Below are positions 24,001 through 33,000 of a DNA stretch of 64,000 nt, in pieces. Position 1 is the stretch's first letter, and every line of letters starts with the position of its first letter. Source of the DNA: Trueperaceae bacterium (GTDB taxonomy: Bacteria > Deinococcota > Deinococci > Deinococcales > Trueperaceae). The position numbers were made by a program. Location: contig JAXHLW010000013.1 of NCBI GenBank assembly GCA_034521815.1, positions 1,280,001 through 1,344,000 on the forward strand, given 5' to 3'.

Positions 24001-27000
24001 TCGGCGCCACGCTCGAAGGGGAGGAGCGCGAGGTCGCCTCGCTGCTGCCCCCGGCCGTATCGAGCCGGGCGGGATCGTCGTGCCGAGCGACGACGCGTCG
24101 CTCCGGGAGACCCTGAACGCGTCCGGCGCCGACCGGCTGGCCGCGATCGTGGTCGCGTCCGACGCGCACGTCGCCACGCCGCATCCTCCCCTGCTCCGTC
24201 ACCCCGATCCGCGGCTGGCGCTGGCCCGCATCAGCCGCGAGCTGGACCCCGAGCCGGCCCCGCCAGCGGGCGTCGCGTCCAGCGCCACCGTGGCCGACGA
24301 CGCGACGCTGGGCGCTGACGTGTCCGTCGGACCGGGCGCCGTCGTCGAATCGGGCGCCGAGCTGGCGGACGGCTGCGTCATCGGGGCGGGCGCCGTCGTC
24401 GGCCGAAACTGTCGGCTGGGGCCCGGCACTCGCCTCTTCGCGAGGGTGGTTCTCTACCCGGGTGTCCGGATCGGCGCTCGCGTTCGCATCCATGCCGGCG
24501 CGGTCGTCGGGGCGGACGGGTTCGGCTACGCACCCGGGCCGCACGGCGCCGAGAAGGTGCACCACCTGGGAGGCGTGACGATCGGCGACGACGTCGAGAT
24601 CGGCGCGAACGCCTGCATCGATCGCGGCACCCTGGGTGACACCGCCATCGGTAACGGCACGAAGCTGGACAACCTCTGTCAGGTCGGGCACAACGTGACG
24701 ATCGGCCGGCACTGCCTGATCGCCGGGCAGACCGCCATCGGCGGCTCCACCGTGATCGAGGACGGCGTCCTGATCGGCGGGTCGGCCGCCCTGTCCGACC
24801 ACGTTCGGGTGGGTGCCGGCGCGCGCATCGCGGGCCGAGCCGGCGTGTCGAAGAACGTCCCCGCAGGCCAGGCGTGGGGTGGGGCGCCGGCGGCGCCGAT
24901 GCGGGACTGGGCGCGCGAGCGGTACCTGGTCGGGCGCCTGGAGCGCATCTGGACGTTCGTGCGTGGCGCGCAGAGGGCCGAGGCCCAGACCGCGCAGGAG
25001 GCGTCGGAGACCCCGGTGGAAGGCCGCGGCGGGTGAGCTCCGCGCCGACCCTCGCCGGCCACGGCGTGCACAGCGGTACGCCGTGCACGGTGCGCCTGCA
25101 CCGCTACGACGGACCGGTCGTTCTCCGGCGGGCGGGCCGCACGATCGCCCCGCGGATCTCGGCGGTCGTCGGCGCCCGCGGCGCCACGATCCTGGGCGCC
25201 GACGGCGTGCGCGCGGCGATGGTCGAGCACCTCTTCGCCGCGCTCCAGATCCGCGACGTCTGGTCGGGCGTGCTGATCGAGGTCGACGCCGACGAGCTCC
25301 CGATCCTGGACGGCTCGGCCGCGCCCTGGTACGAGGCGCTGAACGCGCTCGCGCCGTTCCCCCCTCCGCCCGAGCCGTGGAGGGTCGACGCGGAGATCCG
25401 GCGAGAGGACGGCGCGTACGCCGGCGTGAAGCCTGGCCCGAGGGAGCTGGACGTCCAGATCGCGTTCGATCACCCGGCCGTCGGCACCCAGGCATGGCAG
25501 GGTGCTCAGGACGCCTGGCCCGAGCTGCTCGCAGCCCGCACGTTCGGCTTCGCGCGCGACGCCGCCACGCTGCGCGCCGCGGGCCTCGCGAGCGGCGCCA
25601 AGCCGGAGAATGCTATCGTCTTCGGCGACGATGCGCCGCTCGAGCCGCTACGCTTCCCCGACGAGCCGGTCCGGCACAAGGCGCTGGACGCACTCGGCGA
25701 TCTCTACCTTCTCGGGCGCCCCTTCGCGGGGCGCCTTCGTGTGCGCCGCGGCGGGCACGATCTGCATCACCGTCTCGTGACCCGCATCGTGTCGTCCGCG
25801 GGGAGCGCCGGGTGAGGCCACGCGAAGCGGTTCGGGTCGCGGTCGTCGGCGCCGGCGTGATGGGCCGGCACCACGCCCACAACTACCTGTCGCTGCCCGG
25901 CGCGGAGCTCGTCGCGATCGTCGATCCCGATCCCGCCGCCCGTGCCGTCGCGCAGCGGACCTACGGCTGCGCGACGTATCCGGACGTGGACGCCCTGCTG
26001 CGCGCGGAGCGGATCGAGGCCGCCAGCGTGGTGGCTCCCACCAGCCTGCACCACCGCCTGACGATGCGGCTGATGGACGCCGGGGTGCACGTCCTGGTCG
26101 AGAAGCCGGTCGCGACCACCGTGGCCGAGGCGGCGGCCCTCGCGAACCGCTCCCGCGAGCTGGGCCTCGTCCTTCAGGTGGGCCACATCACCCGGTTCTT
26201 CCGTGCGGTGCGCCTTCTCGGCGAGCGGGTGCGGCAGCCGTACCTGATCGAGGCGCGGCGCCTGTCGCCGCAAGCACGGATCAAGGACGTCGGCGTGATC
26301 CTGGACCTGATGATCCACGACATCGACATCGTGCTCGGCCTGGTGCCGTCCGCGATCGCCGACGTGGCCGTCGCGGGCCACGTCGTGGACGACGACGACG
26401 CCTTCGAGGACGTGGCGGCCGCTCAGCTCACCTTCGAGAACGGCTGCATCGCGCGGTTCCTGGCGTCGCGCGTCGCGCCCGACGCCGAACGAAGCCTGGT
26501 GGTGGCCGAGCGCGACCGCACCTACCGCGTCGACTTCCTGCGCGAGCCGCACACCGAGATCGCGGTGTACCAGTCGCGACGCGACGCGCAGGGCGACACG
26601 CACGTGCGAACCGACCGGCAGGTGGTGGCCGAGGACAACCCGCTCCGCGAGGAGCTGGCGCACTTCCTGGCTCGGATCGCTTCGGGAGCGCGGCCGATCG
26701 GAACGCTGGACGACGATCTCCGCTCGCTTCGGGTCGCGACCGACCTGCTGGCCCGGCTGCGACCCGCCGCGGCGCCCGGGCCGATGGCGGGGGCTCGGGT
26801 ACACTGACCGGCATGGACGTCGACATTCGGGACGTGCTCCCGCATCGCTACCCGTTCCTGCTCGTGGACCGCCTGGTCTCGCAGGAGGGCGACCGGTTCG
26901 TCTGCGTCAAGAACGTCACGTTCAACGAGCCGTACTTCGTGGGCCACTTCCCGGGCGAGCCGGTGATGCCGGGCGTGCTGATCGTCGAGGCGCTCGCGCA

Positions 27001-30000: not shown

Positions 30001-33000
30001 TCGCCGTGTTCGCGGCGCTGGCGGGACTCGTCGCGCTGCTCGCCGGTCGCGCCGCGGCCGGCTCCATGTCGGTGGGCGGCGTGCTCGAGTACCTGACGCT
30101 GGTGGCCCTGCTCGCGACGCCGGCGCAGCTGCTTCCGCGAGGCTACGCGCTGGCGCGCCAGGCCGAGGCGGCGGGGCGCCGGCTGGTCGCCTTGGCGGAT
30201 CGGGTGCCGGGCGACGACGCACCGGACCGCCCAGCGCTGGGCGACGACGCGCCGGGCCTGGACGCGCCGGATCCCGACACGCCGGGCCTGGACGCACCGG
30301 ACCGCCAAGCACCGGGCGACATGGGAGGCGACGAGAGCTTGGTGCTCGACGACGTCTGGGCGCGGCATCAGGATGGCCCGTGGATCCTTCGCGGCGCGTC
30401 CGCGCGACTCCCGGCACGCGGCCTGGTCGCCCTGGTCGGCGACAGCGGCGCCGGCAAGAGCACGCTGCTCGCGGTGCTTCTCGGCTTCATGCCCGCCGCT
30501 CGCGGCTCGCTGGAGCTGGCGGGCGTGCCGCTCCGCTCTCGACCCGACGCGATCGGCTGGGTGCCGCAATCGCTGGATCTGATGCGCGGCAGCGTACGCG
30601 ACAACCTGACGCTGGGCCGATCGGCGTCGGACGACGAGATCTGGACCGCCCTGCGTGCGGTCGCGTTGGACCAGGCCGTGAACGACCTTCCTGCCGGCCT
30701 CGATCACCCGCTGACCGAGGACGGCGCGGGCCTTTCCGGAGGCCAGCGACAGCGGCTCGCGATCGCGCGCGCCCTCCTTCGCCGCCCGGCGGCTCTGCTG
30801 CTCGACGAGCCCACCGCCAACCTGGACGGCGCGTCCGAGGAGGCGCTGGTGCGCACGCTGCGTCGCGAGGCACGCCACCGCCTGGTGCTCGCCGTGGCCC
30901 ATCGCACCGCCCTGGCCGACGCCGCCGACCTGGTCCTGCGCCTGCACGACGGGCGGCTGGACCGTGTCCAGGCCGCCACCGCGGACGATGCGACGAACGC
31001 TGGGAGAGCGACGTGACCGGGAAAGCCACGTGACCGGGAGACGGATGTGAACGAGAACGACCTGTACGACGACGCCGAGCTGTACGACGACGCCGAGCTG
31101 TACGACGCCCAGTACCGCTGGTACCGCGACGACCTGGCGTTCTACCGCGATCTCGCCCTCGATCGTCCCGGCGCCGTGCTCGAGATCGGTGCCGGTACCG
31201 GCCGCGTCACCGTCGAGCTCGCCAGGCTCGCCGAACGGGTCGTGGCGTTGGAGCCGTCGGAAGCGATGCGAGCGGCGGCAGCGGCTCGCCTGGACGAGGC
31301 CGGCGTAGCGGGGCGCGTCGAGCTACGCGACCAGGACGCTCGCGAGCTGGCCGAGGACGGCGGGTTCGCTCTGGTGGTGGCGCCGTTCCACGTGCTCATG
31401 CACTTCGTGACGCTCGACGACCAGGACGCGGTGCTGCGCGGCGCTCGGTCGGCGCTGGACCCCGGCGGCGCGTTCGCCTGCGACCTGTTCGTGCCCCGCT
31501 TCGGACCCGACGACGTGCTGCGCCGGGAGACGACCTGGCGCGACGCGGCCGGTCGCGACGCGGAGCTGTGGACCGTCCAGCACCACCACGCGGCGCAGCA
31601 ACGGATCGAGAGCCTGTACCTCGTGGACCGGGTCGGCTCGGACGGCATCGTTCGGCGGAGCCGGCGCACCTTGGTCCAGCGCTACTTCCATCGCTACGAG
31701 CTCGAGCGGGCCGTGCGCAGCGCAGGCTTCCCGGACGTGCGTCTCTTCGGCGATTTCGACCGACGGCCGCTGGACGACGACGCGGCCCGCTACGTGGTGC
31801 TCGCGACGATCTGACCTGCCCTTCCTCGCGCGACCCGACCCGCGACCTGCACGGCGAAGGCGCGCATCAGCGGCGTATCGGGCACGCATCAGTCGCCCTC
31901 GAGCACCCGCGCCGCCGCGCCGCTCGCGGCGCCGAACGGCACGTCGTGGCCCAGCTCGCGCAGGACGGACTCGAGCGTGCCGGCCAGCCCCAGCGCGTCG
32001 AACGCGTCCGCCCAGCCCAGCACCGACGGGCGGACGAGGAACGGCGCGGCCTCGTCCTGCCCCCCGGCGATGCGCACCCCGCGTCGCGCGAACGCGGCCA
32101 CCACGTCGTTCGCTGCGACGCCGTCCGGTACCCGCAGAGCGGCGACGGCGGGGCTGGCCCGCACGGCGAAGCGCGTGCAGCCTGCCGCCTCGCCCGCGGC
32201 GAGGACCGCTTCGTTCAGACGCCTGCGCCGGGCCCACAGCTGTTCGATCCCGTCCGTCAGCAGCAGCGGACGTACCGCCGCAAGCCCGGCGATCAAGCCC
32301 ACCGCCGGGGTCGTGCCGGTCTTGCCTTCGCGTTGGGCCGGCAGCTCGGCGTGCAGGTCCGCGGCGAAGCTGCGGCGCGAGACGGGAGGCTCGGCGCGAA
32401 CGCGCTCCGAAAGCCACGCGAACCCCAGCCCGGGCGGAAGCATCACGCCTTTCTGAGAGCCCGAGACCACGGCGTCGAGCCCCCACGACAGCGGCCGCAG
32501 CTCGCTCACCCCGAGGCTGGTGACGGCGTCGACCAGGATGCGCGTCTCGGGCGACCGCTCGCGGATCGCCTGCGCCTGGCGTTCGACGTCGTGCAGCACG
32601 CCGGTGCTGGTCTCGGAATGCACCAGCGTCGCTGCGGCGACGTCGGGACGAGCGCGGACGGCGTCGGCGATCTGCTCGGGCGTCGGGCTCGCGCCCCACG
32701 GCGCCACGACCTCGACGACCTCGTGACCGTGGCGCTCGGCGAGGCCGGCCCAGCGCTCGCCGAACTTGCCGGCGCGAATCGCCAGCACCGCGGCACCGGC
32801 CGGCACGCTGGCCAAGAACGCCGCCTCGAACGCGCTGGTCCCGCTGCCGGAAAGGATCGCGACGTCGTCGCCGGGAACGCACGCGAGCTCGGCCAGCAGG
32901 CCACGAGCCTCACCGAGCAGGCGCGCGAACTCGGGCGTGCGGTGGTGCAGCGGCGGCCGAGCGATCGCTTCGAGCACCTGCGGCGGTACCTCGACCGGTC

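Follow-up and report, generated by a model that had tools for sequence, protein, structure and literature searches.

An lpx operon of Deinococcota with a gnnA ortholog and an LpxB paralog: a putative amide-linked, Kdo-free glycolipid

The window analysed here is a 64,000 nt stretch of a Trueperaceae bacterium genome (contig JAXHLW010000013.1, positions 1,280,001–1,344,000; genome G000, 84% complete). It contains the early genes of lipid A synthesis together with a dehydrogenase gene, which raises the question of what membrane lipid this operon serves to build. A preliminary description proposed a 2,3-diaminoglucose lipid A without Kdo.

The operon and its gnnA ortholog

The operon is genuine. 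The gene order lpxD-lpxC-gnnA-fabZ-lpxA-lpxB-msbA given in the preliminary description stands, as do the common strand, the coupled stop and start codons and the identities of lpxD, lpxC, fabZ and lpxA (Table 1). The 'lpxB', however, is not canonical LpxB, and 'msbA' holds for its position only: the exporter has the same place in the operons of relatives, but its match to TIGR02203 (MsbA) is 197 bits, under the cut-off of 602. The start of lpxD, placed before at 24080, is corrected to 23970. The reading frame shifts in a C5 run at 24048–24052, and the similarity of the N-terminus to relatives continues in another frame. One additional C stands at this site in a 98.5% identical contig from run X1, which is free of the frameshift; the shift is most likely an assembly error. 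The operon probably ends with the SAM methyltransferase gene. This gene comes after the exporter gene at six of seven loci of family f1, the family of the window genome, in one comparison and at five f1 loci in another; in genome G274, of family f5, it comes after the NxPGE transferase gene.

Table 1. Genes of the operon, with positions in the window
Gene and product	Position	Strand	Evidence
lpxD, N-acyltransferase	23970..25036	+	TIGR01853 298.9 bits (cut-off 242.5)
lpxC, deacetylase	25033..25815	+	PF03331 194.7 bits; TIGR00325 152.7 bits (under cut-off 187); VEHL and HKALD motifs
gnnA, UDP-GlcNAc 3-dehydrogenase ortholog (predicted), 331 aa	25812..26807	+	K98/H169 align with K91/H164 of 7BVJ
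fabZ	26813..27232	+	TIGR01750 and NF000582, both over cut-off
lpxA	27236..28006	+	NF003657 240.9 bits (cut-off 226); catalytic His kept
'NxPGE' GT-B glycosyltransferase, LpxB paralog (by sequence), not LpxB	28003..29259	+	
ABC exporter, putative flippase in msbA position	29256..31016	+	PF00664 (membrane domain) and PF00005 (ATPase)
SAM methyltransferase	31047..31814	+	PF13649

Sequence and fold matches make the gene that follows lpxC a good ortholog of gnnA; its product belongs to the Gfo/Idh/MocA family, and no characterised protein is closer to it than GnnA. The best PDB match is GnnA (7BVJ) with an E value of 1.7e-60, compared with 2.7e-29 for the next, and the top five rows of a fold search are all GnnA. 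These matches confirm the homology to Acidithiobacillus GnnA that had been described with an identity of 36%; by structural alignment the identity is 31–33%. K98 and H169 are invariant in 12 of 12 sequences, and their counterparts in 7BVJ are the Lys of EKP and the His of DLMIHD, which reportedly have a catalytic role (Manissorn 2020). The best NCBIfam match is an archaeal UDP-GlcNAc 3-dehydrogenase model at 179 bits, under its cut-off of 450.

The gene is present in 127 of 301 Deinococcota genomes, a count that, like the others across the phylum, includes kin and is not one of independent cases; none is in family f2. It lies directly behind lpxC in 111 of the 121 genomes with both genes, an arrangement previously given as universal. 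Neither is gnnA confined to lpxC-bearing genomes, as 6 genomes have gnnA and no detected lpxC. Genomes G275 (gnnA and no lpxC; 86% complete, 550 contigs) and G251 (an lpxC fragment, no gnnA) are taken as assembly gaps and are excluded from the argument on gene loss. Family f5 does have lpxC in the absence of gnnA, as described before (gnnA in 0 of 10 genomes; the best E values of a repeated search in five genomes are 1e-25 to 1e-29). Where the operon is split, gnnA stays beside fabZ-lpxA, and across the phylum it is lost together with the lpx genes. Outside Deinococcota, gnnA is inside lpx operons at six loci, whereas dehydrogenases of the WbpB type, from polysaccharide clusters, branch far away in the tree.

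An LpxB paralog and the late steps

By its sequence affinities, the sixth gene of the operon is an LpxB paralog of a separate NxPGE clade and not LpxB itself. It matches TIGR00215 (LpxB) with 25 bits (cut-off 190), and the best E value among 17 members is 6e-11. The tree places a Deinococcota clade (support 1.0) inside the NxPGE clade (0.927), with canonical LpxB as a clade of its own (1.0). BLAST E values of the Deinococcota transferases are 1e-27 to 1e-61 to NxPGE members and 3e-9 or weaker to LpxB. The NxPGE motif stands in place of the GExSGD of LpxB, but the GT-B fold and the LPGSR, GT..LE and LPN motifs of the UDP-binding domain are shared with LpxB (GT19, PDB 5W8S). Residues S200, R201, T277 and E281 of LpxB, whose UDP-binding roles are taken from PMC6286764, correspond to S191, R192, T288 and E292. 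The closest solved relative by sequence is LpxB (E 6.6e-7), and 47 of 55 Deinococcota copies pass the low LpxB threshold of Pfam. In 12 of 14 canonical rows, LpxB has an 'ID' motif whose Asp is presumably the catalytic base D98; no Asp of the transferase aligns with it, in a region where the local alignment may be shifted. A fold search lists UDP-GlcNAc 2-epimerases first (Z 24.6, rmsd 4.2, 327 aligned) and LpxB at rank 5 by Foldseek, with no LpxB among the 50 VIA rows listed; it shows only a GT-B fold and is not discriminating. The ESM Atlas gives 'GT19 family' clusters only.

The transferase gene occurs once per genome and goes with the lpx genes (137 of 301 genomes), and no canonical LpxB was found in 55 Deinococcota genomes. 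In other phyla the NxPGE gene lies between lpxB and msbA, and canonical LpxB is also present in 30 of 30 outside genomes that have the NxPGE family, which implies another job for the family. No WaaA was found in 24 of these 30 genomes. A role as a strict WaaA replacement was rejected, since both proteins are present in the other six and waaA is on record for cultured Halanaerobiales. Fusions of a homolog are seen with a GT2 domain and with canonical LpxB (a single record each), and one member has a weak PF04413 match (E 0.003). Locus L207, considered as an LpxB-NxPGE fusion, was rejected as a long ORF with no LpxB domain.

A third LpxB-like GT-B family, TIGR03492 ('lipid-A-disaccharide synthase-related protein'), forms its own clade. 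Other phyla carry it in the same clusters, and the window genome has it at another site. Unlike the NxPGE transferase it occurs even where the lpx genes are missing (10 of 11 genomes in f2), showing that paralogs of LpxB can function in the absence of lipid A. A literature search, with most subscription journals outside its scope, yielded nothing on TIGR03492 and nothing on GnnA or GlcN3N in Deinococcota.

Of the Raetz Kdo2-lipid A pathway, LpxA, LpxC and LpxD are encoded in the operon, and the later enzymes were not found. The reported absence of LpxK and WaaA is upheld: each is over cut-off in 0 of 55 genomes, with two sub-threshold matches apiece and positive controls. Also with positive controls, LpxI is found in 0 of 25 genomes and LpxH in 0 of 5. 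Three operon-linked phosphoesterases of other phyla, used as queries for an LpxG-type hydrolase, have no match in the 84% complete window genome. KdsA is over cut-off in 0 of 5 genomes, and KdsA-like matches (100–122 bits, cut-off 314) are read as likely DAHP synthases. With no canonical LpxB, LpxI or LpxH found, the predicted disaccharide backbone has no known enzyme. Cyanobacteria and Dictyoglomi, according to Opiyo 2010 (PMC3087551), likewise have no known lipid X hydrolase, yet they are credited with a disaccharide; a missing LpxH or LpxI is therefore no proof against one. The absence of Kdo has precedent in the same groups, whose four-enzyme Kdo-free pathway also has an lpxD-lpxC-fabZ-lpxA cluster and no LpxK or WaaA. 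It differs in having canonical LpxB (354–371 bits in three cyanobacterial genomes), whereas in Deinococcota the paralog alone was found, in most cases together with gnnA.

Predicted acylation, amination and export

LpxA of the window has the substitutions D126N, G101A and Q73M (E. coli numbering). D126 is replaced by N in 17 of 18 f1 proteins and in five of six outside proteins from gnnA-bearing loci, and it is kept in 9 of 9 outside proteins with no gnnA at the locus. However, the 10 f3/f4 proteins all retain D126 as well, and the f1 residues occur in one f5 LpxA with no gnnA. Five f1 genomes of three genera, four of them drafts of 87–95% completeness, keep gnnA and lpxA and have neither lpxC nor lpxD; these losses are counted by genome and genus. 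The transferase is present in four of the five and was not found in G279. In the one pair of these genomes that could be measured, gnnA and lpxA are under purifying selection, with dN/dS values of ~0.09 and ~0.08, respectively. Loss of lpxC is seen only where gnnA is present. On general chemical grounds, amide formation should need no pull by LpxC. O-acylation by LpxA, with a Keq of ~0.01, does need it (PMC6408518). Lineages with LpxA but no LpxC do not fit the usual view of LpxC as the committed step.

A GnnB-like gene was reported in the window genome, and one full-length DegT gene of the C3 type is indeed present. The accompanying statement that the GnnB candidate does not co-distribute with gnnA is contradicted in families f3 and f4. 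Here the candidates form one clade (support 1.0), their gene is directly behind lptF/G at 11 of 11 f3 loci and 2 of 2 f4 loci, and the nearest solved structures are C3 aminotransferases. The GnnB-matching class is present in 28 of 29 f3 genomes with gnnA and in 0 of 33 without it. The DegT genes of f1 do not group together in the tree, have varied contexts and are not linked to the operon; a DegT match is absent in five of six near-complete lpx-less f1 genomes. The GnnB candidate is well supported in f3/f4 and weaker in f1. As a phylum-wide marker for GnnB the DegT gene of the window genome was rejected, as it picks up WbpE types of polysaccharide clusters in gnnA-less genomes, which probably accounts for the earlier negative result. 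A third, distinct LptF/G is present in 4 of 4 pathway-bearing f1 genomes and 0 of 1 pathway-less; in these few genomes, with one negative, the pathway seems to be accompanied by a second Lpt module.

Proposed route and alternatives

The diamino and Kdo-free parts of the original prediction are supported, but its 'lipid A' disaccharide is in doubt, as no canonical LpxB, LpxI or LpxH was found. A 2,3-diaminoglucose is supported by the orthology of GnnA, the aminotransferase of C3 type that two families have directly after lptF/G, the LpxA changes that track gnnA and the retention of gnnA and lpxA where lpxC is absent. An amide-linked, Kdo-free chemistry is quite likely, and a lipid A disaccharide in Deinococcota is doubtful. 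Since no canonical LpxB that would join two sugars was found, a different, undescribed membrane glycolipid is probably made.

In the route proposed, GnnA would oxidise UDP-GlcNAc at C3 in an NAD-dependent step, as its orthology suggests, and the operon-unlinked DegT aminotransferase (GnnB) would then give UDP-GlcNAc3N. LpxA would N-acylate C3, LpxC would deacetylate and LpxD would N-acylate C2. The NxPGE transferase may use the acylated UDP-sugar as donor, like its relative LpxB, and hand the N-acylated diaminoglucose on to a lipid that is not lipid X. The ABC exporter would flip the product, and the second Lpt module (LptC/A-like, LptD-like and single LptF/G) would carry it outward. Neither Kdo nor a 4'-kinase step would be involved, and in the lpxC/lpxD-less lineages the transferred sugar would be 2-N-acetyl-3-N-acyl. 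It is quite possible that the full operon builds such an amide-linked GlcN3N outer-membrane glycolipid, other than the Raetz lipid A disaccharide. We put forward more tentatively that most LPS-gene-bearing Deinococcota make no lipid A, the first Raetz steps serving to form an N-acyl diaminoglucose donor and the LpxB paralog grafting this sugar onto another lipid to yield an outer-membrane glycolipid of an undescribed class, served by an Lpt bridge of its own, and that LpxC and LpxD are dispensable in some lineages because the first acylation forms an amide.

The route is similar to the GnnA/GnnB route of Acidithiobacillus ferrooxidans (7BVJ, 7BVK) in fold, best sequence match, aligned Lys and His, a gnnA inside the lpx operon and an available C3-type DegT aminotransferase. 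It differs in the position of gnnA, between lpxC and fabZ, in an unlinked gnnB (directly after lptF/G in f3/f4, in various contexts in f1) and in that LpxH/I, LpxB, LpxK and WaaA were not found.

A takeover of the LpxB job by the NxPGE transferase, with lipid X supplied by an unrecognised hydrolase and, as product, a tetra-N-acyl GlcN3N disaccharide that bears neither Kdo nor a 4'-phosphate, is rather unlikely. The solved LpxB as closest relative, the Pfam matches, the kept UDP-binding residues and LPN motif, the position directly behind lpxA and the four-gene pathways that also have no known hydrolase favour it, and Antunes 2016 counted the M. ruber gene beside lpxA as LpxB. Against it are the separate clade, the coexistence with canonical LpxB in all 30 outside genomes that have the family, the unaligned 'ID' Asp and the lpxC/lpxD-less lineages, which cannot make the diacyl sugar yet retain the transferase. 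Unlikely too is a half lipid A, where the transferase in a conserved role adds a plain sugar to the 6-OH of the acylated hexosamine and the anchor in Deinococcota would be a single di-N-acyl GlcN3N, freed from UDP by a putative hydrolase and then extended by the NxPGE and TIGR03492 enzymes. The location between lpxB and msbA elsewhere, the 24 genomes with no WaaA, the fusions, the PF04413 match and the presence of TIGR03492 in most pathway-bearing genomes are consistent with this. But it requires a hydrolase that was not seen, six outside genomes combine NxPGE with WaaA, waaA is on record for cultured Halanaerobiales, the fusions are single records, the anchor in lpxC/lpxD-less lineages would bear one chain only, and TIGR03492 occurs in genomes with no lpx genes but was not found in G218 and G196.

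That the dehydrogenase serves another sugar pathway or substrate, while LpxA O-acylates UDP-GlcNAc as usual, is improbable. The low model score and identity, the Lys and His that are general to the Gfo/Idh/MocA family, the f5 operon that runs with no gnnA and the unlinked f1 aminotransferase point this way; the linkage to fabZ-lpxA, the joint loss with lpx genes, the six outside loci, the distant WbpB types and the restriction of lpxC loss to gnnA-bearing genomes point the other. Least probable is a decaying remnant left by LpxB loss, with no functional lipid made. The pathway is wholly lost in f2, in 33 of 62 f3 and in 12 of 14 f4 genomes, lpxC and lpxD are lost in three f1 genera, and the window's lpxD is frameshifted. 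However, open frames are kept in nearly all of 127–137 genomes, the tested pair is under purifying selection and the frameshift is absent from the near-identical contig.

If the 'LpxB' of the phylum is the paralog, these cells may bear some other outer-membrane lipid, whose chemistry could be worked out in cultured, harmless species. The operon would also be a natural system for the NxPGE family acting without LpxB, and could reveal its role in Cyanobacteria, diderm Bacillota and others. Envelope glycolipids of Thermus and Meiothermus reportedly have an N-acylated or N-acetylated hexosamine (Ferreira 1999, Yang 2006, both cited in PMC10667739) and are not known to contain a diamino sugar. Thermus has no LpxC in a control search; such glycolipids thus do not need the operon.

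Operon layout and sequence quality

The genes of the lpx operon are listed in the table below, and there is a stop/start overlap at four gene junctions. The N-terminus of lpxD is in a different frame and the break is within a C5 run at positions 24048-24052. A 419-base contig of sequencing run X1, with six other letters different, has one extra C in this run, and metX and metY are also split by frameshifts, a further sign of indel errors in the assembly. The lpxD frameshift is therefore most likely an assembly error. The window genome is only 83.5% complete, and for this reason absences were tested in relatives.

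Coordinates of features in the window and in other genomes (G000:C13, contig of the window genome; L numbers, fetched loci)
Feature	Position	Strand	Remarks
lpxD	23970-25036	+	curated cut-off passed; operon lies after mreB
lpxC	25033-25815	+	over Pfam cut-off, under TIGR00325 cut-off
Gfo/Idh/MocA gene (gnnA)	25812-26807	+
fabZ	26813-27232	+	curated cut-off passed
lpxA	27236-28006	+	curated cut-off passed
GT-B gene (NxPGE transferase)	28003-29259	+
ABC exporter	29256-31016	+
SAM methyltransferase	31047-31814	+
S55-like gene between mreB and lpxD in relatives	L037:14751-16514, L041:3369-5060, L052:3257-4897
S55-like gene and lpxD in one frame	L036:13843-16767		974 aa, one f1 genome
metX and metY	G000:C13:612946-615580		split by frameshifts
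DegT gene	G000:C13:624783-625874		full length
TIGR03492 glycosyltransferase	G000:C13:292931-294160		unlinked
Second Lpt module	G000:C13:598284-602369, L137:7398-10858, L270:3788-7888
UshA-like phosphoesterase	L207:12868-13566, L209:12288-13019, L211:11912-12646		lpx clusters without visible lpxI
PEMT/ICMT-family methyltransferase	L170:7396-7959, L207:11828-12406, L211:11312-11890, L191:11236-11823		lpx clusters of other phyla
Two lpxD genes	L211:1475-2533, L211:8914-9990		Synergistia

The relatives are grouped in families f1 (that of the window genome) to f5. Most f1 and f5 relatives hold a gene of 550-600 aa with a weak match to SpoIVB peptidase S55 in the gap between mreB (ending at 23965 in the window) and lpxD. 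It is not at this spot in the window genome, and tblastn found none elsewhere in the assembly. One f1 genome has the S55-like gene and lpxD within a single open frame. The SAM methyltransferase gene is kept behind the exporter in f1 and behind the transferase in one f5 genome; its product might modify the lipid. In genome G158 the lpx region is present twice with identical scores (C1:2487916-2492198 and C2:33968-38250), either by duplication or by assembly redundancy.

The NxPGE transferase and the Kdo steps

The preliminary description, which did not find LpxK and WaaA in five near-complete genomes, proposed that the gnnA-bearing operon makes a Kdo-less lipid A with a 2,3-diamino-glucose backbone, and it named the GT-B gene lpxB. 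The operon and its gnnA gene stand and an amide-linked, Kdo-free product is likely, but the supposed LpxB has 25 bits on TIGR00215 against a cut-off of 190 and falls in a separate clade, termed NxPGE after its N-terminal motif. With a paralog in this place and no true LpxB found among the Deinococcota genomes sampled, the operon probably makes something other than textbook lipid A, as judged from sequence comparison. Searches of 55 genomes picked for completeness and presence of the pathway bore out the missing LpxK and WaaA (0/55 over cut-off, with three controls detected each time). KdsA was over cut-off in none of five genomes. Cyanobacteria and Dictyoglomi provide a precedent for a Kdo-free pathway (PMC3087551).

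The best PF02684 match is 15-32 bits in each of the 55 genomes, mostly spanning ~40 of 374 positions. It passes Pfam's low threshold in 47 of them, which explains the lpxB annotation. The transferase is predicted with confidence to adopt a GT-B fold (pLDDT 92). A phylogenetic tree shows three clades, LpxB, NxPGE and TIGR03492, and the Deinococcota proteins fall within NxPGE, a large family with 434 clusters at E 1e-30. In Deinococcota the gene is single-copy and follows the distribution of the lpx genes (137/301 genomes; f2 0/112). Outside the phylum, 80 named NxPGE loci come from diderm Bacillota, Cyanobacteria, Armatimonadetes, Synergistia, Gemmatimonadota and others. Canonical LpxB is inside the fetched flank in 24 of these, typically in the order lpxA-(lpxI)-lpxB-NxPGE-msbA, and it was found in all 30 genomes drawn from the 80 that were searched whole (184-371 bits, 28 over cut-off). 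LpxI was found in 0/25 Deinococcota genomes and LpxH in 0/5.

The LpxB gap is already recorded in Antunes 2016 (PMC5007114), where Truepera radiovictrix and Marinithermus hydrothermalis have "NH" as their LpxB entry and Meiothermus ruber has the gene adjoining lpxA; no discussion of the gap was found in the sections consulted. The lpxC and lpxA accessions listed there are three apart in all three species, consistent with two genes between them. Later phylogenomic surveys and supplements may also record the missing LpxB.

TIGR03492 is a third paralog, present in 41 of 56 genomes overall. It is found in 10 of 11 f2 genomes, which have no lpx genes, so that LpxB paralogs can act without lipid A; there it is a candidate for the synthesis of their own glycolipids. 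The copy in the window genome is unlinked. Three Gemmatimonadota records (L206, L215 and L186) have NxPGE, TIGR03492 and GT2 genes with an ABC exporter clustered apart from the lpx genes, perhaps a second glycolipid pathway; LpxB and WaaA are present too. A short UshA-like calcineurin phosphoesterase, a candidate lipid X hydrolase, is present in outside lpx clusters without visible lpxI; it had no match in the window genome. The PEMT/ICMT-family membrane methyltransferases in outside clusters are reminiscent of Leptospira LmtA. One Synergistia locus has two lpxD genes.

GnnA, the GnnB candidate and LpxA residues

The best solved relative of the window GnnA protein is PDB 7BVJ, the UDP-GlcNAc 3-dehydrogenase of A. 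ferrooxidans (E 1e-38; next 4e-18), and a 12-sequence profile gave E 1.7e-60 for the best versus 2.7e-29 for the next match. The top five fold matches of the predicted model (pLDDT 86) are all A. ferrooxidans GnnA (TM 0.79-0.83, 31-33% identity). A UDP-GlcNAc 3-dehydrogenase family likewise gives the best NCBIfam match, which is under its cut-off. The catalytic residues K91 and H164 of 7BVJ have K98 and H169 as their aligned counterparts.

LpxC was detected in 132 and GnnA in 127 of 301 Deinococcota genomes; GnnA is found in 95/102 f1 genomes plus the window genome, 29/62 in f3, 2/14 in f4, 0/10 in f5 and 0/112 in f2. Of 121 genomes carrying both genes, 111 have gnnA directly after lpxC. The ten exceptions are two at contig ends, one inverted beside lpxC, six in which gnnA stays together with fabZ-lpxA at another place and one in which it stays near fabZ. 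Genome G252, which is unpublished, is one row in the lpxC, gnnA, transferase and adjacency counts, and no claim depends on it alone. The arrangement is not special to Deinococcota, as six of the 80 outside loci, among them records of Armatimonadetes, Vulcanimicrobiota and Synergistia, have gnnA within the lpx operon.

The candidate for GnnB, the partner aminotransferase, had been described as not co-distributing with gnnA. This does not hold for f3 and f4, where a DegT clade set apart with support of 1.0 tracks gnnA; the case in f1 is weaker. In 11/11 f3 loci a gene of the clade directly follows lptF/G. The two f4 genomes with gnnA show the same order and have no other DegT gene. The full-length match class of 46-50% identity is found in 28/29 gnnA-bearing versus 0/33 gnnA-less f3 genomes, with 11 of the 28 genes placed in the tree. 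Three matches in gnnA-less f4 genomes have no Lpt genes nearby, and one is within a WbpA-B-D-E-like cluster. There was no match at E 1e-60 in f5 (0/10 genomes). All seven gnnA-bearing f1 genomes re-searched have a DegT gene, in varying clades and contexts. The window genome has one full-length gene, closest to C3 aminotransferases, which as query also picks up WbpE-type genes of polysaccharide clusters.

The catalytic His of LpxA is present in 48/48 aligned proteins. D126, which pairs with it as a dyad (PMC6286764), is N in 17/18 f1 and 5/6 outside gnnA-bearing proteins; it is kept in 9/9 outside proteins from loci that lack gnnA, in 4/5 f5 and also in 10/10 f3/f4 proteins. G101 is retained in 13/14 gnnA-less versus 0/34 gnnA-bearing proteins. 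These relations are correlations across few independent lineages. Whole-genome searches for gnnA in four of the nine outside genomes gave at best a partial match of E 2e-42 (gnnA-bearing control 4e-88). In 16/18 f1 and 5/5 f5 proteins M replaces Q73, the residue that binds the 3-hydroxyl of the acyl chain, and non-hydroxylated acyl chains may be used.

Lineages without lpxC and lpxD, the proposed product and its export

Five genomes of three f1 genera (G185, one contig and 97% complete, G202, G204, G279 and G291) have gnnA, fabZ and lpxA with open frames. LpxD was not found in them, nor was LpxC when searched for by family and by protein. The usual place of lpxC and lpxD is empty, with the upstream S55-like gene followed directly by gnnA. 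The transferase is present in four of the five, and the exporter is beside it in three. The losses agree with an amine substrate for LpxA, as an amide product would not depend on LpxC. O-acylation, with a Keq of ~0.01, needs the pull of LpxC (PMC6408518).

An amide-linked, Kdo-free core is quite likely on the basis of genes, orthology and distribution. GnnA and GnnB would convert UDP-GlcNAc to UDP-GlcNAc3N, LpxA would N-acylate it, LpxC would deacetylate, and LpxD would add the second N-acyl chain. As the next step we tentatively favor that the NxPGE transferase takes the acylated sugar from UDP and puts it on a lipid that is not lipid X, because the UDP-binding residues of LpxB are kept, the searches gave no lipid X hydrolase and a product with one chain would need a lipid acceptor. 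It is rather unlikely that the paralog makes a disaccharide; the losses of lpxC and lpxD speak against one built from diacyl sugars, at least in the three genera concerned. Slightly less probable is an anchor of one sugar unit to which a plain sugar is added. That GnnA is unconnected to the lipid is improbable, and a decaying remnant is highly improbable: dN/dS between G204 and G291 is 0.13/1.48 for gnnA, 0.16/2.0 for lpxA and 0.085/1.46 for fabZ, with dS saturated for the transferase.

Short pathways without Kdo were known before, as were the GnnA/GnnB chemistry (PMC5644692, PMC11446377) and the presence of lpx genes in Deinococcota. Recent reviews still give the envelope of the phylum as without canonical LPS (PMC13018214, PMC13721041). 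The polar lipid mixture of T. radiovictrix is uncharacterised and contains branched acids and diols (PMC3072082), and N-acetylglucosaminyl lipids are attributed to Thermus and Meiothermus (PMC10667739). A literature search in which subscription journals were thinly covered gave no reports on GnnA or 2,3-diaminoglucose in Deinococcota, the NxPGE family or TIGR03492.

An outer-membrane glycolipid class other than lipid A, with its own Lpt bridge, is possible but less likely than not. A second Lpt module (LptC/A-like, LptD-like and a single LptF/G) is located apart from the usual lptF-lptG pair. There are three LptF/G genes in each of four pathway-bearing f1 genomes and two in one pathway-less genome; with this one genome on the pathway-less side, it is a lead that the module may be dedicated to the lipid of the operon. 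The third LptF/G forms its own clade (0.987), which takes in the copy preceding the GnnB candidate in f3/f4. The G202 copy is ~3 kb from mreB and the gnnA genes, on their upstream side. The upstream neighbor of the third LptF/G is similar to ESM Atlas clusters that carry automatic LptD-like names (0.97).
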